A stretch of DNA of 64,000 nucleotides. It comes from Anaerolineae bacterium. Lineage in GTDB: Bacteria > Chloroflexota > Anaerolineae > JBHIEC01. This document shows, piece after piece, positions 3,223 to 57,575 of this stretch (positions within the stretch are counted from its first letter, which is position 1; every line of letters begins with the position of its first letter). Both the position numbers and the translations under genes were made by a program. Where the stretch lies: NCBI GenBank assembly GCA_046760425.1, contig JBHIEC010000001.1, positions 325-64,324 on the forward strand, written 5' to 3'. The notes under the pieces are model-generated. The model did not search any database. It was not told the origin of the DNA and worked only from the letters and a program-made list of their open reading frames with translations.

Positions 3223-4587
3223 TCATTTCCCCACGCAGAAATGGCTGAAGATGGCCTCCAAGAGATCCCCGCTCACGGTCTCGCCGGTGATCTCCCCCAG
3301 GGCGTTGACCGCCGCCGTCAGGTCAATGGCGATGAAATCGGCGGGCAGCCCTCGTCCGTGGGCCTCCTGGGCCGATGCGACGTGCTCCAGGGCCCGCTGC
3401 AGGAGGACCTTGTGGCGCGGGTTGCTGACCAGAGGTTCGTCCGAGGCCACCACCCGCCCGGAGAAGACCGCCTCCACCATGGCCTCCTCCAGCGTCTCTA
3501 ACCCCTCCCCCGTCAACGCCGAGATGCGCACCCGGGGCGCATCGGGCAGGAGATCGAGGGAGGTCAGGGCCTGGGGCAGATCGGTCTTGTTGATCACCAG
3601 GATGGCTGACCGCTGGCCCACCAGCCCCGCGATCTCCCGGTCGGCCTCGGTCAGAGGCTCGCTCCCATCCACGACCAGGAGGGCCAGGTCGGCCCGGCGC
3701 AGAGCCTCCCGGCTGCGTTCCACCCCCAGCCGCTCCACCAGATCCTCGGTGGCGGCGATGCCGGCCGTGTCCACCAGCACCAAAGGGACGCCCCGCAGGT
3801 TCATCGTCTCCTCCAGGGTGTCGCGGGTGGTGCCGGGGAGGGGGGTGACGATGGCCCGCTCGGTTCGCAGCAGTGCGTTGAGCAGTGTGGACTTGCCCAC
3901 GTTGGGCCGCCCCACGATGGCCGCCCGTATCCCCTGCCGATAGATGATCCCCTGATCGGCGTGGGCCAGCAACCCCTCGATCCGGGCCCGAGCCCGCCCC
4001 AGAGCGGGGGCGATGTCCTGCGGCGGGACTTCGTCCTCGGGGAAGTCAATGGTGGCCTCCAGATAGGCCAGCACGTCCACCAGTTGGGCGCGCACGGCCT
4101 GCACCTCCTGGGACAGACGACCGCCCAACTGGTCAACGGCCACCCGCAGGCCGGCCTCTGTTTTGGCCTGGACGATGTCCAGGACGGCCTCAGCCTGGGC
4201 CAGATCGAGGCGGCCGTTGAGGAAGGCGCGGACGGTGAACTCGCCTGGGCTGGCCAGGCGGGCGCCGTGGCGCAGGGTCAGCTCCAGGATGCGTCGCAGG
4301 GGCACGATGCCGCCGTGGGCGTTGATCTCCACCACGTCCTGGCGGGTGTAGGTGTAAGGAGCCCGCATATAGGACACCAGCACCTCGTCCACAGCCTCGC
4401 CACTGGCCGGGTCTACGATGTGGCCGTAGTAGAGGTGGCGGGAAGCCAGGACACCATCGCCCCTCACACCCCGAAAGAGCTGGCGCAAGATGGGCAGCGC
4501 CTCCCTCCCGCTGAGGCGCACGATGCCGATCCCCCCTTCGCCAAGGGGGGTAGAGATGGCAGCAATGGTATCGTCCAGGCTGTACAT
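3223..4587 (-). CDS. mnmE: tRNA modification GTPase MnmE (TrmE)
   Basis: 454 aa. G-domain motifs GRPNVGKST, DTAG and NKTD. Ends with the C-terminal CxGK motif (FCVGK). Confidence 0.9.
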   Translation of the reverse strand: MYSLDDTIAAISTPLGEGGIGIVRLSGREALPILRQLFRGVRGDGVLASRHLYYGHIVDPASGEAVDEVLVSYMRAPYTYTRQDVVEINAHGGIVPLRRILELTLRHGARLASPGEFTVRAFLNGRLDLAQAEAVLDIVQAKTEAGLRVAVDQLGGRLSQEVQAVRAQLVDVLAYLEATIDFPEDEVPPQDIAPALGRARARIEGLLAHADQGIIYRQGIRAAIVGRPNVGKSTLLNALLRTERAIVTPLPGTTRDTLEETMNLRGVPLVLVDTAGIAATEDLVERLGVERSREALRRADLALLVVDGSEPLTEADREIAGLVGQRSAILVINKTDLPQALTSLDLLPDAPRVRISALTGEGLETLEEAMVEAVFSGRVVASDEPLVSNPRHKVLLQRALEHVASAQEAHGRGLPADFIAIDLTAAVNALGEITGETVSGDLLEAIFSHFCVGK

Positions 4588-4868
4588 CCCCGCTCTCCTG
4601 GTTCTATGTTCGCTGTGGAGGGGCGTCCGCGCCCCGTCCTAGGTCTTTACACCGAAGCCGGGCCAGGGACGCCCCTTGATAGCACCACCAGGTTCCCCGC
4701 CTGAACGGGTACTTCTGATCTGCCCTAATTGTACCAGCAACGGCGGCCAAAGGCAACAGGAACCTTTGGCCCACCTTTTACGTCTACCATGGCAGAACTC
4801 AAGGAGGAAGTGCGGGCCAAGGCCATCGAGATCCAATAGGCCCGAGCGAAGCGAAAAGGTCATGGAGA

Positions 4869-5141
4869 TCAGGGTTTTCCGAGCCCCTCATCGTGCTCGC
4901 CGATGTTGCGCAGGAGGCAGATGTCATCTTCGATCTGAAAAGTCATGCGGCAGGAGCAGGTCACCCGGGCCTCCCAGATATCCCGCGTCCCCCTGATCCG
5001 CTTGACTCGCAGGCTGGGGTGACGCAGGTTTTGCAGCAGCAGCCGGAGGGCCTTCCTGGCCCCTTCCCGGTTCTCCGGGGTCAGCTTTCTATAGGCTCTC
5101 TTGAACCGTTCCGTGCGGGCAATCTTCACCTTGTCACGCAT
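4869..5141 (-). CDS. Type II toxin, RelE/ParE family
   Basis: 90 aa with RelE/ParE-like composition (...RIRGTRDIWEARVTCSCRMTFQIEDDICLLRNIGEHDE). Overlaps the upstream antitoxin by 8 bp. Confidence 0.65.
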   Translation of the reverse strand: MRDKVKIARTERFKRAYRKLTPENREGARKALRLLLQNLRHPSLRVKRIRGTRDIWEARVTCSCRMTFQIEDDICLLRNIGEHDEGLGKP

Positions 5142-7429: not shown

Positions 7430-7449
7430 GCGAATGAAAAAGGCGTTCA

Positions 7450-7480
7450 CCCTTGCGAAGGTTCCGAACCTTCGCAAGGG
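7450..7480. repeat. Palindromic repeat family CCTTGCGAAGGTT..AACCTTCGCAAGG, copy a
   Basis: CCCTTGCGAAGGTTCCGAACCTTCGCAAGGG is a perfect palindrome. Related copies lie at 36404-36435 and 48478-48554. Confidence 0.7.
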
Positions 7481-7550
7481 TTGCCCAAGCTTGTTTCGAA
7501 AGAGAATCCGTGCTATAATTTGGCTGCACAGTGACGAAAGGAGGGGAGGG

Positions 7551-9717: not shown

Positions 9718-12700
9718 TCAGCCCTCCTTCCTGCGCACGCCCAGGGTGATCCCCTGTCCCTCGATCTCGAAGGACCGGATGTGGGCTTCGGGCGGTGGCT
9801 CTTTGGCCACCAGATCTGTGGTCAGGGTCTCGCCTCTGATGTACTCGCCGTACTCGGCCATGACCTGGGCCAAAGCTCCCTCGGCCTGGTAGTAGGTGGT
9901 GATATGATCCTCGATGCGGAAGCCGGCCTTCTTGCGCATGATCTGGATGCGCCGCACCAGATCCCGGGCCAACCCCTCCCGCCGGAGGTCCTCGGTGATG
10001 GCCGTGGCCACCCCCACCAGGTAGCCGCCCTCTTCGGCCACGGCGTAGCCTTCCTTTTCCATCATCTCCACCTGCAGCTCCTCGGGCAGCAGTTCGATGA
10101 CTTGGTCGTCAACGGTGACCTCGACCGTCTGGCCGGCCTGGATCTGCTTGGCCAACAGGCTGGCGTCCAGAGCGGTGACGGCCGACTGGATCTGGGGCAA
10201 CAGGGCTCCGAATTTGGGCCCCAGGAGGGCCGGGATCGGCCGCACGCGATGCTCCACTATCTCCCCTTCGTCCTCGATGAAGCGCAGGGCCTTGACGTTC
10301 AGTTCGTCCAGCAGTTGGTCGGCCAGGGGTTCCAGGCCAGCTTGCTCCTCCGCCGAGCGCACCTTGATGAGGGCCTGGGACAGGGGCTGCCGCAGCTTGA
10401 TACCGGCTTTGTTGCGGGCAGCGTGGCCCAGGCTGGCCAGCCGCATGGCTAACCGCATGTCGGCCATCAGATCCTCGTCAATAAGGGATTCATCGGCTAC
10501 GGGGAAGTGGGAAAGATGCACGCTTTCGGGAGCAGAACTATCCACCGACGAGACCAGGTTGCGGTACATCTCCTCGGCCACAAAGGGGGTGAAGGGCGCC
10601 AGGAGCTTGCTCAGGGTGACCAGGCACTCGTAGAGGGTGGCGTAGGCAGCGTTCTTATCTTCGTCCACTTCCCCCCGACTGAAGTCGGGAGCTGGGCGCC
10701 AGAAGCGACGTCGGCTACGACGCACGTACCAGTTGGACAGGTCCTCCACGAAGTCCTGGATGGGCCGGGCGGCGCCGGTGACGTCGTAGTTGGCCAGGCC
10801 CGTGTCCACACGTTGGATCAGGGTGTGAAGCTCGCTCAGGACCCAACGATCGAGGGAACTAAGGGAACTGAAGGAACTCAGGGAACTCCCTTCAGTTCCT
10901 TGTGGGGGTGTCCAGCCGTCAATGTTCGCATAGGTCACGAAGAAGGCGTAGGTGTTCCACAGGGTGAGCATGAACTTGCGCACCACCTCCCCCACCAGCT
11001 CGACAGAGAAGCGGCGGTCATTGCCTGGCGGCGTGGCGGTGTAGAGGTACCAGCGCAGGGCATCGGCGCCGTGGATGTTCAGCACCGACCAGGGGTCAAC
11101 CACATTGCCCCGCGACTTGGACATCTTCTCCCCTTCGGCGTCCAGGATCAGTCCCAGGCAGACGCAGTTCAGGTAGCAGGGCTCGTCGAAGAGGAGGGTG
11201 GAGATGGCGTGCAGGCTGTAGAACCAGCCCCGCGTCTGGTCCACGGCCTCGCAGATGAAGTCGGCGGGGAACTGCTCGCGGAAGAGCTCCTGGTTCTCGA
11301 AGGGATAGTGCCACTGGGCCACAGGCATGGCTCCGGAGTCGAACCAGCAATCAATGACCTCGGGCACGCGGCGCATGGTTCCGCCGCAGCCCTCGCAGGG
11401 CCACGTGACGCGGTCCACGTAGGGGCGGTGGAGGTCCAGCCGTCCTAAGTCCGAAGTCCTACGTCCTGACCCTTCATTGATTTTGGACTTTGGACTTTGG
11501 ACTTTGGACTTCAGTTCCTCGATGCTCCCGATGCACTCCTGGTGGCGGCAGTTTTCACACTCCCAGATGGGCAGGGGCGTGCCCCAGTAGCGCTCCCGGC
11601 CCAGGGCCCAGTCCACGTTGTTGGCCAGCCAGTTGCCGAAGCGTCCCTCCTTGATGTGCTCCGGGTACCAGTTGATCTTCTCGTTGTTAGCCACCAGCCG
11701 ATCCTTGAGCCGTGTGGTCTCGATGTACCAGGTGGTCTTGGCGTAGTAGAGGAGGGGCGTGTCGCAGCGCCAGCAGAAGGGGTAGACGTGACGGTAGGTC
11801 CCCACTTTGTACATCAACCCCCGCCCCTTCAGCTCCTCGATGATCAGGGGATCGGCGTCCTTGACGAACAAGCCCCGCCAGGGGGTGACGGCATCAATGA
11901 AGGCCCCCTTGGGGTCCACGGTCTGCAGGATGGGCAGGTCGTACTCCTTGCCCATCTCCAGGTCCTCGGCGCCAAAGGCGGGGGCCATGTGCACCACCCC
12001 CGTGCCCTCCTTGGTGGTCACGAAGTCGGCGGCCACGACGTAGTAGGCCCCCTTGTCCACGGGCAGGAAGGTGTAGAGGGGCTGGTAATGCGTGCCCACC
12101 AGCTCTTTGCCCTTGAGGGTCCTGACCACCCGGTACTCGCCCCGCAGCGCTTCCTCCATGAGGGCTCGGGCCAGGATCAACTGCTCTCCCTCCTGCTCCA
12201 CAACGACGTAAGCCACCTCGGGGTGGACGGCCAGGGCCACGTTGCCGGGCAGGGTCCAGGGAGTGGTGGTCCAGACGAGAAAGTAGGTCCCGGGCTCGTC
12301 TCGCAGGGGGAATTTGACATAGACCGATGGGTCGTCGGTCTCGCGCATCGCGCCCGGGTAGTGCTGCTCGTGGGAGGAGAGCGGTGTGCCGCAGCGGGGG
12401 CAGTAGGGCACCACCTTGTAGCTCTGGTAGATCAGGTCTCGGTCCCAAAGCTGTTTGAGGATCCACCACACGGATTCGATGTACTCGTTGGTGAGGGTGA
12501 CGTAGGGATGCTCCATGTCAATCCAGAAGGCGATGCGATCCGTCATCCGCTCCCACTCCTCGACATAGCGGAAGACGCTCTCCCTGCACTTCTGGTTAAA
12601 CTCGGCGATGCCATACTCTTCGATCTCCCGCTTGCTGGAGAGGTCCAACTCCTTTTCGATCTCCAGCTCCACGGGGAGGCCATGGGTGTCCCAACCCGCG

Positions 12701-12945
12701 CGGCGGTCTACCAGATAACCGCGCATGGTTTTGTAGCGCGGAAACAGGTCCTTTACGGCCCGGGCCCAAACATGATGCAGGCCTGGGAGCCCATTGGCAG
12801 TCGGTGGCCCCTCATAAAACACGTAGCGCGGCGCACCCTCGCGAATGGCCAGACTTTTAGCGAAGATCTGGTTCTCCTTCCAGAACTTCAAGATTTGTTC
12901 TTCCATTGCTGGAAAGTTGACCCTGCTATCAACGTCGTTGAACAT
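9718..12945 (-). CDS. ileS: Isoleucyl-tRNA synthetase
   Basis: 1075 aa. Class I KMSKS motif and zinc-binding cysteine clusters. GGAGGG ribosome-binding site before the ATG at 12945. Contains two in-frame repeat insertions (see repeat features). Confidence 0.95.
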   Translation of the reverse strand: MFNDVDSRVNFPAMEEQILKFWKENQIFAKSLAIREGAPRYVFYEGPPTANGLPGLHHVWARAVKDLFPRYKTMRGYLVDRRAGWDTHGLPVELEIEKELDLSSKREIEEYGIAEFNQKCRESVFRYVEEWERMTDRIAFWIDMEHPYVTLTNEYIESVWWILKQLWDRDLIYQSYKVVPYCPRCGTPLSSHEQHYPGAMRETDDPSVYVKFPLRDEPGTYFLVWTTTPWTLPGNVALAVHPEVAYVVVEQEGEQLILARALMEEALRGEYRVVRTLKGKELVGTHYQPLYTFLPVDKGAYYVVAADFVTTKEGTGVVHMAPAFGAEDLEMGKEYDLPILQTVDPKGAFIDAVTPWRGLFVKDADPLIIEELKGRGLMYKVGTYRHVYPFCWRCDTPLLYYAKTTWYIETTRLKDRLVANNEKINWYPEHIKEGRFGNWLANNVDWALGRERYWGTPLPIWECENCRHQECIGSIEELKSKVQSPKSKINEGSGRRTSDLGRLDLHRPYVDRVTWPCEGCGGTMRRVPEVIDCWFDSGAMPVAQWHYPFENQELFREQFPADFICEAVDQTRGWFYSLHAISTLLFDEPCYLNCVCLGLILDAEGEKMSKSRGNVVDPWSVLNIHGADALRWYLYTATPPGNDRRFSVELVGEVVRKFMLTLWNTYAFFVTYANIDGWTPPQGTEGSSLSSFSSLSSLDRWVLSELHTLIQRVDTGLANYDVTGAARPIQDFVEDLSNWYVRRSRRRFWRPAPDFSRGEVDEDKNAAYATLYECLVTLSKLLAPFTPFVAEEMYRNLVSSVDSSAPESVHLSHFPVADESLIDEDLMADMRLAMRLASLGHAARNKAGIKLRQPLSQALIKVRSAEEQAGLEPLADQLLDELNVKALRFIEDEGEIVEHRVRPIPALLGPKFGALLPQIQSAVTALDASLLAKQIQAGQTVEVTVDDQVIELLPEELQVEMMEKEGYAVAEEGGYLVGVATAITEDLRREGLARDLVRRIQIMRKKAGFRIEDHITTYYQAEGALAQVMAEYGEYIRGETLTTDLVAKEPPPEAHIRSFEIEGQGITLGVRRKEG
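10864..10899. repeat. In-frame hairpin insertion in ileS
   Basis: GGAACTGAAGG aactcagggaactc CCTTCAGTTCC. Encodes GTEGSSLSSFSSLSSL in the minus-strand frame. Confidence 0.6.
11443..11514. repeat. GTCCAAAGTCC-type terminal-inverted-repeat element inserted in frame in ileS, including a 7-bp tandem GGACTTT x4
   Basis: ...GGACTTCGGACTTAGGAC on one end and GTCCAAAGTCCAAAGTCCAAAGTCCAAAATC on the other. Encodes ELKSKVQSPKSKINEGSGRRTSDLG. Related copies are in hypE and hypF. Confidence 0.7.
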
Positions 12946-15160: not shown

Positions 15161-15194
15161 AAGCCCCCGTCCTTAGGGACGGGGGCTTTTCGCC
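15161..15194. terminator. Bidirectional rho-independent terminator
   Basis: AAAAGCCCCCGTCC ttag GGACGGGGGCTTTT. Perfect GC-rich stem flanked by A/T runs on both strands. Confidence 0.7.
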
Positions 15195-15777
15195 ACCCCC
15201 GCGGTACCACCCTATTTGGCATACCGCCCACTCCGTGGGGTACGTGTTCATACCCCCGTCCGTGTAACGGTGGACGAAACCGGCCAAGTCTACTTGCTTC
15301 GCACATTCGTAATCCGTAAACTCGTCACGAATCTACGAATTACGATCTACGAATGTACGAGCTTTCGGTTGGCGGCTCCGGAAGGATTTTCAGCGAGATC
15401 ATCGCGCCCGGCTCGCAGCCATATGTCGGGCTCTCTGTAGCGACTACCCTCGCCTACTCGTTTCCATCATCGCCTTTGGCTCGAATGTGACACTATTATG
15501 ACACAAAACGGCGGATTTGTCAAGGGCAAAAGCAAAGCCAACAGGCCCTCGTGCCTGCTGGCTCCCTTTTTTTCTGAGGCACGCCCCGCTGGGCCGTGTG
15601 CCGGGATGGGTTTTGAACCTGCAAGCGCAGGTGGGTGCCTACCGCCGGTTTTGCCCCCTAGGGGGCAGCCCCTTTAGAGATTGGCCCCTAAATTCAGGTG
15701 TTGGCTCAAAACTCTGTCGCGCATCACGTGCACAGCAGGGCGCCTCGCCTATATCATACCACAAAATGCCAAAAAAA

Positions 15778-18515: not shown

Positions 18516-18906
18516 AGGGGCCGGCCCACATGAGGGTCTGCGTCAACGGGGTGCCCATGCGTTCACGGAATTTGGACCCAATTTTGACCGGATTTGGACC
18601 TTGGTGTGTTATAATGGCCAATGAAATCGGATAAGCCAACGGTGCCCTCCGATTCATTGGGTCCCTCTGGGATCGGTGAACGATAAGGTGTGGGGGGCAA
18701 CTCCCACGCCCGCCAGTGTGCAAAGGAGGCAGCCCAGCTTTGGGTTTGCTTCCTTTTTGGTAGGGCGAGGATGAGGTTATCATCGTCCCACGAGGGACGA
18801 AACTGCGCTTGCTGTAGGGAGGAGGTGATGTGCAGGGCCAAAGCTGTCCATGGTGCATAGAGAGGTTCGGGTGCAAGATCCCTATTTTACTGGAGGAGGT
18901 GCTTGA

Positions 18907-36342: not shown

Positions 36343-36400
36343 GACCGCCACTGTAAAAGACGAAGACCTCAACACGAGGTCTCTCGCCATCGAAAGTCCG

Positions 36401-37381
36401 TTAGCCTTGCGAAGGTTCTCGAGCCTTCGCAAGGCTTTCGGGACCCCCACGGGCCTCCTTGCCCAGCAGGGCCTGGGCCGCAGAGTAGGGGTCCATCTGG
36501 CGCTCCACCACGCGCTCCACCAGGGCCTCGATCTCCGTCTGATCAATGCCGGCCAGGAGCCGTCCCATTAACTCGTGGCGCAGGATGTCCATGAGCTCCC
36601 CTCGGGCCCGCTCCCGCTCCCGCTGATGTCGTTGGCCGCTCGTCTCCAGATGGGTGGCATGCTCCTCGATGGCCTCGATCAAGGGCTCCACACCTTCTCC
36701 ACGCAGGGCGATGGTTTTCAGAACAGGTGGTCGCCAGTTCCTCGGCCGGGGGTCCAGATCGAGCATCATCCGCAGGACGGTCACGGCACGATCAGCCCCC
36801 TCCAGGTCGGCCTTGTTGACGGCGAAGATATCGGCGATTTCCAGGATGCCGGCTTTGATAGCCTGGATCTCGTCGCCCAGGCCGGGGGCGGTGACGACGA
36901 TGGTGGTGTGGGCCGCCTCGGCGATCTCCACCTCTGACTGGCCGGCCCCCACCGTCTCCACGAAGATCACCTGGTAGCCTGCCGCGTCCAGCACCTTGAC
37001 GGCGTCGCTGGTGGCCCGGGCCAAGCCTCCCAGGCTGCCCCGCGTGGCCATACTCCTGATGAAGACGCCGGGATCGCCGCTGAGGTCCTGCATGCGTACG
37101 CGGTCGCCCAGGATGGCCCCACCGGAGAAGGGGCTGGTGGGGTCAACGGCCACGATGCCCACCGTCTTCCCCCGTTGACGATAGGCCTTGGTCAGCTCGT
37201 TGACCAGGGTGCTCTTGCCCGTGCCCGAAGCGCCGGTGACGCCCACGATGTGGGCCCGGCCGGTGTGGGGGTAGAGGGCGGCCAGAGCCTGCCGGGCTAC
37301 AGAGCCCTCGTTCTCGGCGAGGGTGATCAGCCGGGCAATGGCCCGACGGTTGCCGGAGAGTACTTGCTCAACTAGGGTCAT
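36401..37381 (-). CDS. meaB: Methylmalonyl-CoA mutase-associated GTPase MeaB/ArgK
   Basis: P-loop GVTGASGTGKST. The palindromic repeat at 36404-36435 supplies its C-terminal residues and stop codon. Confidence 0.8.
   Translation of the reverse strand: MTLVEQVLSGNRRAIARLITLAENEGSVARQALAALYPHTGRAHIVGVTGASGTGKSTLVNELTKAYRQRGKTVGIVAVDPTSPFSGGAILGDRVRMQDLSGDPGVFIRSMATRGSLGGLARATSDAVKVLDAAGYQVIFVETVGAGQSEVEIAEAAHTTIVVTAPGLGDEIQAIKAGILEIADIFAVNKADLEGADRAVTVLRMMLDLDPRPRNWRPPVLKTIALRGEGVEPLIEAIEEHATHLETSGQRHQRERERARGELMDILRHELMGRLLAGIDQTEIEALVERVVERQMDPYSAAQALLGKEARGGPESLAKAREPSQG
36404..36435. repeat. Palindromic repeat family copy b, forming the 3' end of the meaB coding sequence
   Basis: GCCTTGCGAAGGTTCTCGAGCCTTCGCAAGGC. 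Confidence 0.65.
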
Positions 37382-38187: not shown

Positions 38188-38302
38188 GAGCCTTCGGGCT
38201 GAGGCCCCTTCGTCAGGGCTTCCGCTGAGGCGTCAGCCGAAGCGCTCAGGGCAAGCTCTCAAGGCTTCGCCGTCGAGGCTCAGCCGAACGGCCGAAGGCT
38301 CA
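38188..38302. repeat. Intergenic copy of a ~100-bp palindromic element also embedded in frame in hypF (59692-59779)
   Basis: GAGCCTTCGGGCTGAGGCCCCTTCGTCAGG...GGCAAGCTCTCAAGGCTTCGCCGTCGAGGCTCAGCCGAACGGCCGAAGGCTCA. Its ends form an inverted repeat. Confidence 0.7.
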
Positions 38303-38355: not shown

Positions 38356-39612
38356 CTAGCGGTGGCATATCAGACACGTCTCGCCCCTCCTGCCCCGGTG
38401 GCTGGCCGGATAGGGGCTCAGGCTACCCTGGGCATGGCACAGAAGACAATCGCTCCGCCCCTCCATGGGGTGCTGGATCCGGGGCGCGACGCCCACGGCG
38501 GGGACGATCTCCGCCGTCGGAGTGACCGTTGGCTGCGGGGGAGCTATGGCGGTGGTGCTGGGGCCACCCTGCCAGGATCGCATGAGGGCTAGGAGATCGT
38601 TGATGTCGTCGGTGCTCAACAGGGCGTGGAAGGAGGGCATGGCCTCCCCGCCGTCGCGGATGTAGCGGCCCATGGTCTCATCATCCAGGTTGCCCAGCGT
38701 CTCCACCGAGCGCAGGGCCCGCCCGCCGATCTCTATCTCCCCCTCCAGGCCATGGCAGCCGCTGCATAAGCGGGCGAAGAGCTCCCGCCCCTCGGCAGCG
38801 TCCCCCAGGGCGGCATTGAGCCGTTCCGCGGCCGACGTGCCGGCCACCAACGGTGCTCCCGCCTCCCAGGAGCGGATCAGAGCCACCAGCTCGTCAATCT
38901 GGCCGTCGGTCAGCAGGCCCAACTCGCCCCAAGACAGCATGGGGGAAGCACCCCGCCCGCTGATGATGGCCTGTCGGATGGCTGCATCGTCGTAGCTGGC
39001 CAGGAAGGCCCTGGAGTTGAGGGCTGGCCCCAGCCCACCCTCCCCCTTCTGGCCGTGGCAGCGGGAGCAGATATTGGCGAAGATCTCCTGGCCGCTCAGT
39101 TGAGCGCTGGTCAGGGTCCCATGGCAGGCCAGGCAAACCTCGCTGCTGCGGCCGGCGTGGTCGTCGGGATAGCGGGGTGCCTGGCCGACGCCCAGCTTGT
39201 GGCACATCAGGCAATCCTCGCGACCCTTCAGCTCATGGGGCACCTGGGGAGGCGGTAGGGCCACGCCGACGACGATGGGCCGCGCACCGGCCACGTGGCA
39301 GCGCCGACAGTCCTCATTGGTGCGGCCAGCGTGATCGTGGGGCAGGATAGGCGCCCCCACGGTGCCCTCCAGGTGACACATGAGGCAGTTGTCCCGCCCC
39401 TCCAGATCGTGGGGGATCAGGGGGGGCGGCGCCACAGGGGTAACCGGCGCTGGCCGGGCGATGGCGGCAACGGTCACCGTAGGCTGCTGGAGGAGCGACG
39501 CCTGAAGGGGAGGGGGAGGAGGAGTTGGGGGGCCGGCTCCCTGGCAGCCAGCCAGCAGGGCCGTGGCCGCCAGCAGGAGGAAGCAGAGCAGCAGGACTTT
39601 CGCCCGTTTCAT
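38356..39612 (-). CDS. Multiheme c-type cytochrome lipoprotein (8 CxxCH)
   Basis: LLAGC lipobox. Repeated IPHxLEGRxxCLMCH...HAGRxxxxCxxCH paired-CxxCH modules plus two class-I-like CxxCH segments. Confidence 0.8.
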   Translation of the reverse strand: MKRAKVLLLCFLLLAATALLAGCQGAGPPTPPPPPLQASLLQQPTVTVAAIARPAPVTPVAPPPLIPHDLEGRDNCLMCHLEGTVGAPILPHDHAGRTNEDCRRCHVAGARPIVVGVALPPPQVPHELKGREDCLMCHKLGVGQAPRYPDDHAGRSSEVCLACHGTLTSAQLSGQEIFANICSRCHGQKGEGGLGPALNSRAFLASYDDAAIRQAIISGRGASPMLSWGELGLLTDGQIDELVALIRSWEAGAPLVAGTSAAERLNAALGDAAEGRELFARLCSGCHGLEGEIEIGGRALRSVETLGNLDDETMGRYIRDGGEAMPSFHALLSTDDINDLLALMRSWQGGPSTTAIAPPQPTVTPTAEIVPAVGVAPRIQHPMEGRSDCLLCHAQGSLSPYPASHRGRRGETCLICHR

Positions 39613-45404: not shown

Positions 45405-45600
45405 GCTAAGCCATTCGGATCGCCTCAAGTATCAGAAACCAGGTTTTTTTGTGCCCAAAAGCAGAGAAATTAGGGCTGTTTCAGTCACGTTCCCTGGCCA
45501 GAATCCCACCTTTTCAGAGTGGGAAAAAAACCTGGTTTCTTTGCGAACATGTTCAATCTAATATTGTCAAGATAGTTACGTCGTTCGGATCGCCTCAACC
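45405..45600. repeat. About 160-bp element with a ~20-bp internal inverted repeat, flanked by a 15-bp direct repeat at the 3' end of the response-regulator gene
   Basis: TTCGGATCGCCTCAA at 45408-45422 and again at 45586-45600. Internal AGAAACCAGGTTTTTTTG ... GAAAAAAACCTGGTTTCT. Confidence 0.55.
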
Positions 45601-48456: not shown

Positions 48457-48477
48457 GATCCAACCTCCTCCAAGTAA

Positions 48478-48554
48478 AGCCTTGCGAAGGTTGGCCACAG
48501 CCCCAGGTGCCTGGTTGCGGTCTGCCAAGTCCGAGGAGGAAACCTTCGCAAGGC
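48478..48554. repeat. Palindromic repeat family copy c (long-loop version)
   Basis: AGCCTTGCGAAGGTT ggccacagccccaggtgcctggttgcggtctgccaagtccgaggaggaa AACCTTCGCAAGGCT. Confidence 0.65.
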
Positions 48555-48751
48555 TTCAGCTTGGAAACCGCATAAGTACTTTTAATTATAAACCCCTCTT
48601 TCCCCTACGTCTATGCCCCAATCTGGTCCTTTTGGCGCAAAAAAAGAGCTATCTTTGCGATAGCTCAAAAGGGCTATAAGGGCGGGCTTGAGTCACCCGA
48701 GGGGGCCACATCCTCCCAGAGATAAACCTCCCATATTTCGACCACCCCCCA

Positions 48752-51440: not shown

Positions 51441-53516
51441 TTAGAATTTCCTGACCCGTTTAAAATAGTCTTCATCCAGTTGCCGCTTGGCATAGTAGAG
51501 CAGGCCACTGATCAGGGCGATGCTGGCCACGGCCACCACCATAGCCTGGCGGCGGAAGACGGTCTCGGCGATGGCCTTCTCGGCCCTGTCCCGCACCTCG
51601 GTGGCGATACTCCTGGCCTCCTCCGTTTTGTTCTCCGCTGTGGCCAACTGGACCGTGTGCTGGGCCGCCCGGGCTATGGTCAGGCTGGTTTTGGCTTCCC
51701 GCAGCCTCTCCTCCTCCACGGTCACGATCAGGCCCCTGGCCGCCGCCCGAGCCACCATGGCCTCCGCCTCCTCCACGGCGCCGGCCGCTCCGGCCAGGGC
51801 CTGATACATGTCAGCCACTATCCCTCCGATAGGAGTGTCGGGGGCGTGGCAGCTACCGCAGTGCCGTGGCTGATCCCCCAGGAACATCTCCTCGCTGGGC
51901 ACCATGACGTCATGGTGGCCATGACAGGTCACGCACTCGGGCATGCCGGGCGCTTTGGCCCCATGCCTGCCCTGCAAGTAGTAGTCCTGAGTGGCCGTGT
52001 GGCATCCCCCACAGACGCTGGCCACCTCTTCAAAGCCAGGAGGCGCGGCGCCGTGAGTCCCATGGCAGGTGGCACAACTGGGCGCCCGCAGGTCCTGCTT
52101 CTTGAGCAGCGCGATACCGTGGACACTTTCTTTATACAATTCGTACTGGTTGGTGGGGATACCATAGGGGCGCATGAACCCCTTGTCCGAGTGGCAAGAG
52201 GCACACAGGCCGGGCACGTTAGTGGGATAGACGCTGGTGGAGGGATCGTTGACCTCCCTGGTGCCGTGGCCATCGTGGCAATCGAAACAGGTGGCCACCC
52301 TCTGGTCTCCCTGGGTCAGGAGCTGGCCGTGCTGGCTTTCCAGGTACTTGGCATACTGGTCAATGGGCAAATCGTACTGGCGCATCAACTCCACCCGGGC
52401 GTGGCAGGAGCCACACAGGCTCGGGATATCGGCCTTAGCGGGCACACCGATGTAGCCGGCCTGAGGCGACATGGCCGCCCCGGCGTCGCTGGCCGCGGGG
52501 TCGCCGCCGTGGCAATCGGGACAGCGGATGCCCCGGCTGGCGTGGATGCTGCCCTGCCAGGCCGTGGTGATCTTCTCGTGTTTGCCTCCCAGGGCCTTGT
52601 GGCAATCCAGGCAAGTGTTCTGCCCGGGGGTGAAGGGGTACTGGATGGGCGTAGGCAAGGGTCGAGGGGGGGTCGTAGGCGTAGGTGTGGGCGTCGGCTG
52701 GGCCATGGCCGCTGGCTGGTGACAGCCCTGGCACGTATCGTTGGTGCGGTCAGCGTGGTCGGCCGGGAACTGCGGGGCACCTCCCACGCCGGTCTCGTGG
52801 CACATACGGCAGTTGTCACGCCCCTCCAGGGAATGGGGGATGGTGGGCGGGCCGGCCTGGGCAGCGGTGGGTTGTGCCGTGGCGATCGGCTGGTGACAGA
52901 ATTGGCATCCCTCGTTGGAGCGGCCGGCGTGATCGGCCGGGAACTGTGGTGCGCCGCCTACGCCGGTCTCATGGCAGCTCAGGCAGAGCTCCCGCCCCGC
53001 CACGGGGTGAGGGATCTGGGGCGGGGCTGCCGGCGAGGTGGGGGTGATAGTAGCCGTCGGTTCCACGGGGGTTGTGGGAGCGGCAACCACGGCCGGCTGG
53101 TGACAGTTCTGGCAGATGTCGTTGGTGCGGCCAGCATGATCTTTGGGCACCTGCGGGGCGCCGCCCACGCCGGCCTCGTGGCAGGCCAGACAGGCATCGC
53201 GCCCCTCCAGGGAGTGGGGAATAGGGGGAGGCACCAGCGGGGGGGTGGTGGCCTCTGGTTCGGGAGTCGCCACGGCCTCGGCGCTCACCCATTTGTGGCA
53301 CAACTGACACACCCGGTCCGTGCGGCCGGCGTGGGTGTCAGGCACCGGGGGCGCGCCGCCCACCCCCGTCTCGTGGCAGGTCAGGCACGCCTGACGCCCC
53401 TCCAGGGGATGGGGGATGGGGGGTTGGGCCAGGGCCAGACCCGGCAAGACGATGAGGACGACGGTCAGCCCCAGGGCCAGGATAGCTATCTCAAATACCA
53501 CAAGCGCTCGCATCAT
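51441..53516 (-). CDS. Large multiheme c-type cytochrome (about 17 CxxCH) with N- and C-terminal membrane anchors
   Basis: Four tandem paired-CxxCH modules (IPHxLEGRxxCLxCH...HAGRxxxxCQxCH), then a nine-motif domain homologous to 44081..45370. Confidence 0.85.
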   Translation of the reverse strand: MMRALVVFEIAILALGLTVVLIVLPGLALAQPPIPHPLEGRQACLTCHETGVGGAPPVPDTHAGRTDRVCQLCHKWVSAEAVATPEPEATTPPLVPPPIPHSLEGRDACLACHEAGVGGAPQVPKDHAGRTNDICQNCHQPAVVAAPTTPVEPTATITPTSPAAPPQIPHPVAGRELCLSCHETGVGGAPQFPADHAGRSNEGCQFCHQPIATAQPTAAQAGPPTIPHSLEGRDNCRMCHETGVGGAPQFPADHADRTNDTCQGCHQPAAMAQPTPTPTPTTPPRPLPTPIQYPFTPGQNTCLDCHKALGGKHEKITTAWQGSIHASRGIRCPDCHGGDPAASDAGAAMSPQAGYIGVPAKADIPSLCGSCHARVELMRQYDLPIDQYAKYLESQHGQLLTQGDQRVATCFDCHDGHGTREVNDPSTSVYPTNVPGLCASCHSDKGFMRPYGIPTNQYELYKESVHGIALLKKQDLRAPSCATCHGTHGAAPPGFEEVASVCGGCHTATQDYYLQGRHGAKAPGMPECVTCHGHHDVMVPSEEMFLGDQPRHCGSCHAPDTPIGGIVADMYQALAGAAGAVEEAEAMVARAAARGLIVTVEEERLREAKTSLTIARAAQHTVQLATAENKTEEARSIATEVRDRAEKAIAETVFRRQAMVVAVASIALISGLLYYAKRQLDEDYFKRVRKF

Positions 53517-55411: not shown

Positions 55412-56491
55412 TTAGCAGATCCTGGGCAGCATCTCCCCGGTCAGCATGTCCACCAGGCGCGTCCCACCGATCTCCGTCTGCATCAGGACCCTGCCCGCTG
55501 GCTCCGCCACCACCTGACCAATGGCCACCGCCCCCTGGCCATGGCGGGTCTTGCGCATGGCCGCCAGCACCGCCTCGGCATCCTCGGGGGCTACCATGGC
55601 CACCAGCTTGCCCTCGTTGGCCACGTAGAGGGGATCGTAGCCCAGCATCTCGCAGGCGGCGTGGACGGCGGGCCGCACGGGGATCTTCCCCTCCTCGATG
55701 CGGATGCCCACCTGGGACTGACGGGCGATCTCGTTCAGGGTGGTGGCCAGGCCGCCACGGGTGGGATCGCGCAGGACGTGGATATTGTGGCTGGCCTCCA
55801 GCATGGCCGCCACCAGGCCGTTGAGGGGGGCGATGTCGCTCTCTAGCTCCGTCTCAAAGCCCAACCCTTCCCGCTCGCTGAGGACGGCGATGCCATGGTC
55901 GCCGATGGGGCCGGAGAGGAGCACCACGTCGCCCACCTGGGCCCTGGTGCCGGAGATGTCCACCCCCGGCGGGACGAGGCCCACGCCGGCGGTGCTGATA
56001 AACAGCCCATCGGCTCCGCCCTGCTCCACCACCTTGGTGTCACCAGCCACGATCTGGATTCCCACCTCGGCTGCCGCGGCCCGCATGGACTCCACCACCC
56101 GCCGCAGGATGCCCACCGTCAACCCCTCCTCGATGACGAAGGCTGCCGAGAGGTAGAGGGGGGTGGCGCCGCTCATGGCCAGGTCATTCACCGTGCCGCA
56201 CACGGCCAGCCGTCCGATGTCGCCGCCGGGGAAGAAGAGCGGCTTGACCACGTGGGAGTCGGTGGTGAAAGCCAGGCGAAAGTCCGAGGTCAGGGGTCCA
56301 AAGTTCAAAGTCGAGGGGCCCCGGACTTCAGACTTCGGACTTTGGACTTTGGACATTTCCAGCACCGCCGAGTCGTCCAGGCGAGCCAGGGCGGGGTTAA
56401 CAAAGGGGGGCAGGAAAAGCTTCTCCACCAGCTCATGGCTCATCCTGCCGCCGCTGCCGTGGGCCAGGAGGATCTTGTCCCTATCCCTCAT
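55412..56491 (-). CDS. hypE: Hydrogenase maturation protein HypE, with an in-frame repeat insertion
   Basis: MRDRDKILLAHGSGG...TTDSHVV...LAVCGTVNDLAMSGATPL. The N-terminal region contains an inserted SKVQSPKSEVRGPSTLNFGPLTSDFRL segment. Confidence 0.85.
   Translation of the reverse strand: MRDRDKILLAHGSGGRMSHELVEKLFLPPFVNPALARLDDSAVLEMSKVQSPKSEVRGPSTLNFGPLTSDFRLAFTTDSHVVKPLFFPGGDIGRLAVCGTVNDLAMSGATPLYLSAAFVIEEGLTVGILRRVVESMRAAAAEVGIQIVAGDTKVVEQGGADGLFISTAGVGLVPPGVDISGTRAQVGDVVLLSGPIGDHGIAVLSEREGLGFETELESDIAPLNGLVAAMLEASHNIHVLRDPTRGGLATTLNEIARQSQVGIRIEEGKIPVRPAVHAACEMLGYDPLYVANEGKLVAMVAPEDAEAVLAAMRKTRHGQGAVAIGQVVAEPAGRVLMQTEIGGTRLVDMLTGEMLPRIC
56276..56359. repeat. GTCCAAAGTCC-type palindromic element inserted in frame in hypE
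   Basis: AGTCCGAGGTCAGGGGTCCAAAGTTCAAAGTCGAGGGGCCCCGGACTTCAGACTTCGGACTTTGGACTTTGGAC. Confidence 0.7.
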
Positions 56492-57575
56492 ACACCCCTC
56501 CGTAGTGATAGTAGGCTGCGCAGGCCCCCTCGGCCGAAACCATGCAGGGCCCCATGGGCCGCTCCGGAACGCAGCCTTTGCCGAAGAGAGGGCAATCGAG
56601 GGGCTCAGCCACTCCCCGCAGCACTTCCCCACAACGACAGCCCTTAGGCTCCCGCGTCGGCCCGGGGTCAATGTCGAAAGCCTGCTCGGCGTCGAAGCGG
56701 GCATACTTGGGCCGCAGCTTCAACCCACTCTGGGGAACCACCCCTAACCCCCGCCACGGTGCCTCGCAGATTTCGAAGACGCGGTACATCTGCTCCATGG
56801 CCCACTGGTTGCCTTCGGGCCGCACGCTGCGGCGGTAAGCGATCCCCACCTCGGCCCGCCCCTCCTCCAACTGATCCACCAGCATGGCCACGCCCTGCAG
56901 GATGTCCAGGGGCTGGAAGCCAGCGATGACGCAGGGTATGCCGTAGTCCTGGGGCAGGAACTCCCAGGCTCGGGCGCCGATGACAGTGGTCACGTGGCCT
57001 GGGCCGATGATGCCATTCAGCCGCACCTCACCCGCGTCCAGGATAGCCTTGGTGGCCGGCGGGGTCAGTTTGTGCATAGACAGAAGGTAGTAGTTCTCGA
57101 TCCCCTCCTGCTCCGCCTGCAGGATGGAGGCGGCGATGCCCGGGGCGGTGGTCTCAAAGCCCACCCCCAGGAAGACGACCGCTTTATCCGGATTGTCCCG
57201 GGCGAGGTGTAAGGCGTCCAGAGGGGAGTAGACCATGCGCACGTCGGCCCCCTCCGCTTTGACCTTCTGGAGGCTGCTGCGGCTGGCAGGCACCTTGAAC
57301 ATGTCGCCGAAGGTGGCGATGATCACCCCCGGCTCCCGGGCCAAGGCGATGGCCTTGTCCAGATCGGCGTTGTCCGTGACGCACACGGGGCAGCCAGGGC
57401 CAGACAGCATCTCCACCGTGGGGGGCATCACCTGGCGGATGCCGTAGCGCAGGATGGCCACGGTGTGGCCGCCGCAGAACTCCATGAGGCGGATGGGGCG
57501 GGTGGAGCGACGATGGATGTGCTCGATGAGGCCCTTGGCCAGCGCACCGTTGCGGTACTCGTCTACGTACTTCAT
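56481..57575 (-). CDS. hypD: Hydrogenase maturation protein HypD
   Basis: CGGHT motif, GPGCPVC, C-terminal CxxC...C. Confidence 0.9.
   Translation of the reverse strand: MKYVDEYRNGALAKGLIEHIHRRSTRPIRLMEFCGGHTVAILRYGIRQVMPPTVEMLSGPGCPVCVTDNADLDKAIALAREPGVIIATFGDMFKVPASRSSLQKVKAEGADVRMVYSPLDALHLARDNPDKAVVFLGVGFETTAPGIAASILQAEQEGIENYYLLSMHKLTPPATKAILDAGEVRLNGIIGPGHVTTVIGARAWEFLPQDYGIPCVIAGFQPLDILQGVAMLVDQLEEGRAEVGIAYRRSVRPEGNQWAMEQMYRVFEICEAPWRGLGVVPQSGLKLRPKYARFDAEQAFDIDPGPTREPKGCRCGEVLRGVAEPLDCPLFGKGCVPERPMGPCMVSAEGACAAYYHYGGVYEG

Follow-up and report, generated by a model that had tools for sequence, protein, structure and literature searches.

How did tandem arrays of one 7-nt unit, each followed by its own mirror image, come to lie in frame inside three conserved genes, ileS, hypE and hypF, within 64 kb of a single Anaerolineae metagenome-assembled genome (MAG)? 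This 64-kb stretch, called the window below, has a G+C content of ~63%, and all counts of the inserted segments, which we call cassettes, cover these 64 kb. An earlier note had described the three segments as copies of a single element type that survives inside genes in the manner of Rickettsia palindromic elements (RPEs), and had pointed to a second palindromic element with a stand-alone copy at 38188-38302. All four segments were confirmed. The observation is thus real, while the interpretation that came with it is partly supported. The explanation that we favour, with a probability of about one in two, is that the cassettes are selfish or neutral heptamer arrays, seeded in trans, resized by slippage, filtered through the peptides that they encode and turning over at hot spots. 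The host genes and the three copies are the following.

9718-12945, minus strand: ileS, isoleucyl-tRNA synthetase, 1075 aa, an open reading frame (ORF) with E = 0 to T. thermophilus IleS (1ile) and 100% identity to P0001, "MAG: isoleucine--tRNA ligase [Anaerolineae bacterium]"; host of copy 1.
11443-11514, minus strand: copy 1, a 72-nt in-frame heptamer-array hairpin in ileS; peptide KSKVQSPKSKINEGSGRRTSDLGR, residues 479-502.
55412-56491, minus strand: hypE, 359 aa, starting from Met72 of the ORF 55412-56704, with a 100% full-length match to the NCBI-annotated P0241; host of copy 2.
56279-56356, minus strand: copy 2, a 78-nt in-frame heptamer-array hairpin in hypE; peptide SKVQSPKSEVRGPSTLNFGPLTSDF, residues 47-71 of the 359-aa protein.
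57907-60477, minus strand: hypF, carbamoyltransferase HypF, 856 aa, E = 1.4e-226 to 3vth, matching P0121, "carbamoyltransferase HypF [Anaerolineae bacterium]"; host of copy 3 and of two more heptamer arrays.
59661-59866, minus strand: copy 3, a composite insert of 206 nt in the hypF linker between the zinc-finger and YrdC-like domains.

The IleS, HypF and HypE proteins of the window are 100% identical to NCBI MAG proteins annotated "Anaerolineae bacterium", and HypE matches the structures 2z1t and 3vti with E values of about 1e-98 to 1e-93. Each of the three genes contains one stop-free insertion in its translated frame, composed of a tandem GTCCAAA array and then the reverse-complement array, so that the layout on the coding strand is always (GTCCAAA)n, loop, (TTTGGAC)n, which allows a hairpin to form in DNA or RNA. 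With up to one mismatch allowed, GGACTTTGGAC matched 14 times in the window against 1.08 matches expected, a number reached by none of 100 shuffles, and 13 of the 14 matches fall in the ileS, hypE and hypF sites. Tandem Repeats Finder reported 11482-11511 (TTTGGAC x4.3, 100%) and 11442-11467 (x3.7) in ileS, 56322-56354 (x4.7) in hypE, and 59661-59680 (x2.9) and 59831-59862 (x4.6) in the hypF linker.

On the coding strand, copy 1 consists of (GTCCAAA)x4 (11511-11483), the loop ATCAATGAAGGGTCA (11482-11468) and a degenerate arm GGACGTA GGACTTC GGACTTA GGAC (11467-11443). Copy 2 reads GTCCAAA GTCCAAA GTCCGAA GTCTGAA GTCC-GGGGCCCC-TCGACTT TGAACTT TGGACCC CTGACCT CGGACTT. The outer arms of copy 3 lie at 59831-59862 (the 5' arm on the coding strand, a degenerate array of the GTCCAAA unit) and at 59661-59680 (the 3' arm, GGACTTG GGACTTT GGAC), and its loop holds a nested palindromic repeat and a related 52-nt stretch (59779-59830). 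The ends had been taken for a pair of inverted repeats; the arms are indeed inverted, but they are tandem 7-nt arrays, and the exact 11-mer is present on only one arm per site, with at least one mismatch in the opposite arm. [quoted passage not shown] What stands of the single element type is thus a recurring unit in mirrored arrays, without defined ends. When folded as single-stranded DNA and compared with shuffles, the ileS and hypF copies gave z scores of -3.8 and -3.5, respectively; the hypE copy was weak (z -1.1).

The insert length had been said to keep the frame. All three genes are indeed read through in frame and without stops, but the 206 nt of 59661-59866 cannot be divided by 3, and the edges of copy 3 are therefore fuzzy. 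Three heptamers make 21 nt, or seven codons, and the 7-aa period VQSPKSK is consequently encoded in any entry frame; this accounts for the shared peptide and for its circular permutation in HypF. The peptide SKVQSPKS, claimed for all three proteins, is exact in IleS and HypE, whereas HypF has QSPKSKVQS, a circular permutation of the same period. The insert peptides are hydrophilic, as had been stated: their grand average of hydropathy (GRAVY) is -1.59, -0.63 and -0.42, compared with -0.31, +0.21 and -0.29 for the whole proteins. In six frames, the inserts were no more open than random windows of the GC-rich window sequence, and RPE-like all-frame openness was dropped as an adaptation of the inserts.

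Could the repeats be a product of assembly or binning, by chimeric joins or collapsed repeats? The window does come from a MAG, and short repeats can mislead assemblers. However, the full-length frames are intact in all three genes, equivalent cassettes occupy matching sites in many independent JGI, ENA and NCBI assemblies, and the cassettes, at 72-206 nt, were judged comparable to or below typical read or insert lengths. We give this explanation hardly any weight.

The inserts map to loops and linkers, as proposed, judged by gaps against PDB homologues, predicted disorder in IleS and HypE, and an interdomain position in HypF. IleS has 13 extra residues relative to T. thermophilus 1ile, and its insert is flanked by two Cys-x2-Cys motifs, CENC and CEGC. 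HypE has ~23 extra residues between the positions equivalent to 47 and 51 of 2z1t; in the numbering of the long ORF, the insert falls between residues 117 and 144, a stretch matched by 3 residues in 2z1t. In HypF, ~64 extra residues relative to 3vth separate the zinc-finger and YrdC-like domains (query residues 202-275); the linker segment counts 85 residues versus 25 in the two closest homologues found (+60 aa) and 19-26 in homologues with an empty site. AlphaFold2, run with homologue alignments, models the IleS and HypE inserts as disordered loops, with a predicted local distance difference test score (pLDDT) <50 and coil at IleS residues 485-498, and pLDDT <50 at HypE residues 49-68, a coil between two strands.

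Such positions would also suit selected protein features, namely flexible linkers or interaction motifs, whose repetitive DNA would be incidental. The segments are hydrophilic and located in loops, and some arrays are common to many orthologues, such as the QIANRK site of HypF. Yet the segments are absent from the closest as well as from distant orthologues, relatives carry wholly different peptides at the matching position, AlphaFold2 models the inserts as disordered, and a protein-level explanation offers no basis for a 7-nt periodicity with reverse-complement symmetry. We regard selection for such features as highly improbable, and the host proteins most likely derive no function from the inserts.

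The ileS site provided the clearest comparison of filled, empty and replaced states. In 80 metagenomic IleS loci with 47-64% identity to the window protein, the site is a 10-14-aa linker of the type SEKAGRDLSELDLHRP. The closest relative (protein P0002, locus L001), with 84% identity by BLASTP and 86% by global alignment, has the linker EERTGRSLRD and no cassette. When the eight genes shared by the window and L001 were compared, all internal indels of at least 3 aa proved to be repeat units, and all were in ileS: SKVQSPKSKIN and LGR at the first site, together 42 nt or six heptamers, and TEGSSL at a second site, 18 nt or two nonamers. The inserts had been proposed to be lineage-specific, and ortholog alignment bears this out, since distant IleS relatives and the closest one keep the 10-14-aa linker and the PDB homologues lack the segments. 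We also looked for the opposite case, the same peptides in distant orthologues; the peptides are absent there.

Among IleS relatives with at least 64% identity, many different cassettes occupy the copy 1 position with matching codon boundaries. They include the hairpins GTCNCAA x11 versus CCTGRGA x7 in L002, GGTTTCA versus CAACCTG in L003 (z -5.8) and CCAAATC versus ATTGGTC in L004. In P0028, P0029 and P0030, the copy number of the array varies in 7-aa steps in both arms. After masking of the hot spots, a neighbour-joining tree of IleS placed the window together with the empty P0002 and with P0003, which has a 13-aa remnant; the empty group P0010-14 is sister to the cassette-bearing P0021, and cassette types are scattered. 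The ancestral linker is thus kept among cassette-bearing lineages, so that cassettes must either have been gained several times independently at a single codon position or have been excised precisely.

IleS also contains the second variable site mentioned above.

10853-10888, minus strand: second IleS hot spot, a nonamer array, coding AGTTCCCTN x4 with the inverted copy GGAACTGAAGGGAGTTCC upstream; peptide SSLSSFSSLSS.

This site is hypervariable among orthologues, the window protein being 6 aa longer than that of L001, and AlphaFold2 gave pLDDT <50 at the residues of this repeat (684-688). In relatives, the same site holds long heptamer-type peptides, e.g. RFVTRKFVDSDVDESTNPE and MSNEGMSNEVMRDEF.

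The two hydrogenase maturation proteins behave similarly. A short 32-residue segment is present at the HypE site in 64 of 120 homologues. The nearest HypE relatives (L125 and L126, 77-82% identity) carry there a GCAGATG/CATCAGC hairpin of nearly equal length with identical boundaries. The HypF linker holds many cassette types among homologues. In one of them (P0136/L207), the linker peptide is VQSPKSKVSFTVDVGRRTLD and the DNA reads (GTCCAAA)x3-loop-GTCGGAC GTCGGAC TTTGGAC, with a loop that differs completely from the three loops of the window. HypF has at least three variable sites besides the linker, and two of them hold further arrays of the window.

58778-58813, minus strand: direct heptamer array GCGATTT x5.1 (coding AAATCGC) in hypF, in frame; peptide KSQIANRKSQIA; 3 extra residues versus 3vth.
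59272-59302, minus strand: heptamer array in hypF, in frame, CTCGTTA x4.4 (coding GTAACGA-like), accompanied by a short inverted match (GACGAG...CTCGTC); peptide SNEERVMSDERDSS; 11 extra residues (gaps of 8 and 3) versus 3vth; the third HypF hot spot.

At the variable 58778-58813 site, other Chloroflexota HypF have related peptides of the QIANRKLQIA type. A fourth variable HypF site was noted at residues ~744-756 (RRRAAEGMQDGPW), and at each variable site the length of Chloroflexota HypF differs by up to tens of residues.

Heptamer arrays are not confined to these proteins, nor are all of them inverted. In L029 (Anaerolineae MAG DAOSNS010000001.1, minus-strand nt 3998-4876), a single 839-aa membrane-protein ORF contains five in-frame direct heptamer arrays, with the units GTCRRAA, ATCAAAA, GTCCAAA, ATGGCAA and AAATCYR, apparently in loops between hydrophobic segments. 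The ATGGCAA array (peptide ANGKWQM) resembles the HypE-site unit of L125 and L126. Overall, the arms of the cassettes range from 1.4 to 11 units and their hairpin quality from z -5.8 to -0.7.

To quantify the density of such arrays, we counted those with at least 3 copies. The window has seven arrays at period 7, none at period 8 and one at period 9, and close Anaerolineae loci have 22, 0 and 2, respectively. Per 100 kb, this corresponds to 10.9 period-7 arrays in the window, 20.9 in close relatives and 1.2 in distant IleS contigs, where shorter periods prevail, as chance predicts; the density is thus ~10-17x higher in the window lineage than in distant IleS-bearing contigs.

The unit of the window is also widespread. 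The exact 18-mer GTCCAAAGTCCAAAGTCC (GTCCAAA x2.5) was found in at least 120 stretches of species-representative genomes, for a chance expectation of ~17 (our own estimate, 1.2e12 positions / 4^18). The matches listed are mostly from Pyrinomonadaceae and other Acidobacteriota, followed by Verrucomicrobiota, Chloroflexota, Planctomycetota and Bacteroidota, in some cases with several listed stretches per genome (e.g. DATMDU01 x4); the MAG of the window is absent from the matches listed. A further 38 stretches are in viral contigs, some of which have 4-7 arrays (L214, L244). The phenomenon had been thought uncommon outside Rickettsiales and a few cyanobacteria, which is doubtful in view of this spread over many phyla and viral contigs, and of the direct and inverted heptamer arrays that fill several loops of other Anaerolineae proteins. 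Some units are shared with cyanobacteria as well: the IleS arm ATTGGTC of L004 is the reverse complement of the Nostoc GACCAAT, and the L208 array TGGGGAT is a rotation of the cyanobacterial GGGGATT.

Among the matches listed, 51 of 120 stretches lie in long open frames and 34 of 120 have an inverted partner array within 300 nt (10-nt seed). When inverted pairs at most 120 nt apart were considered, again among the matches listed, 35 had the order 5'-(GTCCAAA)n-loop-(TTTGGAC)n-3' and 5 the opposite order; all three window copies follow the majority. This order reads the same on either strand and specifies the same two peptides, hence neither strand choice nor coding accounts for the 35:5 ratio, which points to a directional birth process or a founder structure.

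The two arms differ in the peptides that they encode: GTCCAAA yields VQSPKSK (GRAVY -1.47), whereas TTTGGAC yields FGLWTLD (+0.70). The window ileS copy, L207 and L208 each combine a perfect first arm with a degenerate second one, in which R, S, G or P have taken the place of L, W and F. The W-to-R codon is AGG in the window ileS and CGG in the L207 hypF, hence the substitutions were independent. In our reading of the L002 sequence, the alternation of A and G in the right arm would keep TGA out of frame. As far as the sequences alone can tell, this arm-wise pattern indicates that the inserts are probably translated. It points as well to a hairpin as the state at birth, which then decays, and not to a maintained structure; a range of z from -5.8 to -0.7 is what would be expected if hairpins decay from such a state.

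Hairpin inserts are also known from mitochondrial "byp" elements, in which they are associated with programmed translational bypassing. Bypassing of the cassettes was rejected, because every cassette keeps the frame and is free of stops, which bypassing would not require.

Three housekeeping genes have kept these insertions in frame, with inverted ends, a potential for hairpins and arms of fixed polarity. Such properties would be expected of a classical RPE- or MITE-like element that has GTCCAAAGTCC/GGACTTTGGAC as its terminal inverted repeats and is moved by a transposase whose gene lies elsewhere in the genome. The second, unrelated palindromic repeat, whose presence inside the hypF copy and in a stand-alone form was borne out, adds to this argument.

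38188-38302, plus strand: stand-alone palindromic repeat, 115 nt, intergenic, 54 nt downstream of the cytochrome c stop codon (gene 38356-39612, minus strand).
59692-59778, plus strand: nested copy of the palindromic repeat, with the ends GAGCCTTCGG(G)CTGAGGC ... GCCTCAGCCGAACGGCCGAAGGCTC, inside the copy 3 loop and in the HypF reading frame.

Between the two copies, the left 30 nt are identical and the right 59 nt match at 98%, with a 27-nt internal deletion in the hypF copy; the stand-alone copy folds with z -3.3 on the plus strand and -2.8 on the minus strand. No further copies were found in 246 fetched loci (up to 4 substitutions in the 30-nt left or 39-nt right part), and none in viral contigs when one exact 23-nt segment was used as the query. 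This repeat, with its two near-identical copies, behaves like a small MITE that has inserted into the copy 3 loop; it has the look of a MITE-like element that is specific to this genome and targets hairpin loops. The cassettes themselves do not fit such a description. Internally they share no conserved sequence, and all loops, that of L207 included, are completely different; their arms vary between 1.4 and 11 units; no target-site duplication was seen and no transposase was detected among ~50 window ORFs; direct-only arrays of such units are common; and the inserts are not open in more frames than the background. A classical element is therefore very unlikely.

The main alternative, possible though doubtful, is a purely local origin. 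Slippage would amplify a chance 7-nt motif at a tolerant site, and intrastrand template switching (quasi-palindrome correction or fold-back priming) would make the opposite arm; the units would be convergent, through polymerase or mutational bias and a preference for stop-free hydrophilic codons, and nothing would move between loci. Heptanucleotide repeats are the commonest class of long simple sequence repeats (SSRs) in many bacteria, and slippage has been proposed for them (Mrazek et al. 2007, according to passages of PMC4679880). Direct arrays without an inverted partner, as in L029, are common.

The following observations weigh against our preferred explanation, and several of them favour this alternative. 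Sites on one contig of L002-L004 differ in unit, but at the lspA 3' end all three have GATTAGA/GATTGGA arrays in orthologous positions (L002 8205-8230, L003 14182-14220, L004 14171-14215), so that here, unlike at the IleS hot spot, the site keeps its unit. Units are thus partly site-specific, which fits local evolution, and the QIANRK site of HypF, common to many orthologues, is a similar case. In the global alignment, EGSGRRTSD of the window IleS pairs with ERTGRSLRD of L001 at 4 of 9 identical residues, so the ancestral linker could be the source of both loop and right arm in copy 1. Units of the form RTCNNAA make up 13-21% of non-ascertained arrays versus 2.7% expected; this excess could reflect mutational or sequence bias instead of dispersal, and would be expected if units mutate into one another. 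No insertion event with clean junctions was found, and inspection by eye of five junction pairs (the L001 empty site, L125, L126 and L207) revealed no consistent direct repeat as a target-site duplication, the ends of the arrays being fuzzy. Among the ~50 window ORFs scanned against Pfam, there was no transposase, no REP-associated tyrosine transposase (RAYT; Y1_Tnp-like) and no reverse transcriptase. The internal branches of the IleS tree are short, which makes the scatter of cassette types suggestive only, and the evidence on copy number is limited to 64 kb of the genome.

Other observations are difficult to reconcile with local origin. Three unrelated sites in 64 kb share one unit out of ~1170 possible canonical heptamers, and the same unit recurs at the HypF hot spot of L207, in at least 120 stretches of other phyla and in phages. 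A symmetric fold-back does not predict the 35:5 polarity. The closest relatives have wholly different units at identical boundaries. Finally, the empty IleS state among cassette-bearing branches (P0002 with the window and P0003; P0010-14 sister to P0021) would need several births at one codon position.

We therefore prefer seeding in trans, which we infer from the occurrence of one unit at three unrelated sites in 64 kb, the presence of units in unrelated genes and genomes, the polarity and the repeated gains at one codon position; slippage and the lack of function are likewise inferred. The anatomy of the cassettes, their frame, lineage specificity, hot spots and position in disordered loops, the excess of period 7, the recurrence across phyla and the polarity are direct observations. 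In this model of trans-seeded arrays, a short palindromic or repeat seed from a limited, widely (horizontally) shared repertoire of heptamers would enter a gene in trans within the genome; candidate routes are the insertion of a small hairpin DNA and repair by fold-back or template switching, in which an array would be copied as its own mirror image. Replication slippage would then lengthen or shorten the arrays. Within genes, the survivors would be those events that keep the frame and avoid stops, and insertion would be tolerated only at surface loops and linkers, giving rise to hot spots. Selection on the peptide would erode the arm that encodes hydrophobic residues (TTTGGAC, FGLWTLD), so that the hairpin would decay with age, and in different lineages cassettes would be replaced at shared hot spots.

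A more specific form of this scheme is rather unlikely. It would posit an ultra-small selfish element of Anaerolineae (possibly also of Pyrinomonadaceae, Verrucomicrobiota and some phages) that consists only of inverted 7-nt arrays with fixed polarity, is seeded by a dedicated trans-acting activity into a few permissive codon positions of essential genes, and exchanges its units across phyla, including cyanobacteria. If it were true, hot spots in essential genes, such as the zinc-knuckle loop of IleS, would be natural traps that log insertion, replacement and excision.

The gene content of the window is ordinary. The gene string aspS-GNAT-alaX-Fic-ileS-dksA-lspA-rluD is syntenic in relatives, and a NiFe hydrogenase is encoded together with hypF-C-D-E and a maturation protease. 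Three aldehyde:ferredoxin oxidoreductases, secA, meaB, multihaem cytochromes and a molybdopterin oxidoreductase are also present. A search of the window against Rfam detected a T-box leader and 6S RNA and nothing else, with zero matches at any cassette or palindromic repeat. The T-box leader (15172-15479, minus strand) and the 6S RNA (15579-15744, minus strand) are located between aspS and the GNAT-alaX-Fic-ileS string. The GNAT ORF, called mechanically, has a 5' extension with which the T-box overlaps, so the real GNAT start is probably further downstream.

Several other repeats were noted in the window. The multihaem cytochrome genes at 38435-39432 and 52719-53432 contain diverged internal repeats of 138-174 nt with 60-73% identity and CXXCH haem-binding motifs, which is ordinary domain repetition. 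A perfect 17-nt inverted repeat, AGAAACCAGGTTTTTTT ... AAAAAAACCTGGTTTCT (45434-45450 / 45524-45540, arms 73 nt apart), is intergenic and located beside multihaem cytochrome genes. A palindrome resembling repetitive extragenic palindromic (REP) sequences, CCTTGCGAAGG / CCTTCGCAAGG, has three copies (7449-7481, 36398-36441 and 48477-48556), two of them tight hairpins and one with 48 nt between the arms; its core resembles the ends of the nested repeat (GAGCCTTCG). Finally, 11-nt direct repeats, AATTTGGACCC x2.9, are found at 18569-18600, just upstream of a TATAAT box and an aldehyde:ferredoxin oxidoreductase gene, and may be an operator or promoter element. Although TTTGGACC occurs inside them, this locus was ruled out as a fourth cassette, because its period is 11, it is intergenic next to the TATAAT box and it has no inverted partner.

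The cassettes matter beyond this window for several reasons. Non-triplet units, which genes would be expected to exclude, here keep the frame of an aminoacyl-tRNA synthetase and of proteins that mature hydrogenases. Universally conserved genes thus offer sites in filled, empty and replaced states, with clear empty ancestral sites in close relatives, as a tractable comparative system for distinguishing trans seeding from local growth, for following turnover and for an enzyme search. On the practical side, the cassettes inflate or scramble marker-gene alignments, e.g. of IleS in Chloroflexota, and are disordered loops to be masked in structure and phylogeny pipelines.

How do the cassettes compare with known systems? 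The resemblance to MITEs lies in the inverted terminal arrays, though these are variable in length and internally repetitive; unlike MITEs, the cassettes have no shared core, and no transposase is encoded in the window. The small dispersed repeats (SDR) of Nostocaceae, reportedly described by Elhai and colleagues (Elhai et al.) in 2008, are said to be shorter than 100 nt and associated with hairpins, their mobility having been inferred by comparing orthologous loci. The SDR, reported from Nostocaceae alone, have near-identical units of 21-27 nt, whereas the unit here is 7 nt and no conserved 21-27-nt core was seen among the window copies. REP sequences and REPINs lie outside genes, have a 20-40-nt consensus per family and are found together with a RAYT gene (PMC3116915). 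Like the cassettes, they are short, palindromic, dispersed and non-autonomous, and sometimes form inverted pairs as a larger hairpin; unlike them, the cassettes sit inside genes and consist of heptamers, and the window lacks a RAYT-like gene.

Cyanobacterial heptamers are closer in sequence. They include the short tandemly repeated repetitive (STRR) sequences of Calothrix (cited in PMC4692102), the unit GGGGA(T/C)T (PMC4692102), and GAC(C/T)AAT and TTCAAAA of Nostoc PCC 7120 (bioRxiv 10.1101/2022.06.06.494920), and some units are identical to those of Anaerolineae (ATTGGTC, TGGGGAT). The arrays described are, however, upstream of genes and have been discussed as regulatory; in the literature searched, we found no description of inverted in-frame cassettes in essential genes for these heptamers, and no paper on heptamer repeats in Chloroflexi or Anaerolineae.

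RPEs, according to the passages of PMC10969869 that cite Ogata et al. 2000 and 2002, are ~100-150 bp long, each family having a conserved consensus and a conserved encoded peptide. The cassettes share with them the presence of hairpin-capable repeated DNA in frame in unrelated housekeeping genes, the addition of a peptide at positions compatible with the fold, and an apparently selfish nature. They differ in that the copies have only the 7-nt unit in common, are 72, 78 and 206 nt long, occupy hot spots that other units reuse, and reside in Chloroflexota. The proposal of an RPE phenomenon thus holds as an analogy for the survival of DNA inside genes, and membership fails on the conserved consensus.

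For heptanucleotide long SSRs, passages of PMC4679880 and PMC4692102, in part citing Mrazek et al. 2007, report that period 7 exceeds other periods, that arrays differ between close relatives and that a unit recurs in distant groups without a known transfer mechanism, as does TAACTGA in Beggiatoaceae, Cyanobacteria and Bacteroidetes. The BOGUAY genome (Beggiatoaceae) has 169 direct sets and 1 inverted set, of which only 25 touch ORFs, and a repeat unit within coding sequence is expected to have a length in nt that is divisible by 3 (PMC4679880). The abundance of heptanucleotide repeats in some bacteria and the sharing of units across phyla are described as open questions (PMC4679880, PMC4692102). 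The window arrays agree with these repeats in having at least 3 head-to-tail 7-nt units, an enrichment of period 7 and a unit found in distant lineages. In contrast to those mostly intergenic and direct repeats, the GTCCAAA arrays of the window are all intragenic and inverted, at fixed hot spots. On balance, the phenomenon is nearer to heptanucleotide long SSRs than to RPEs.

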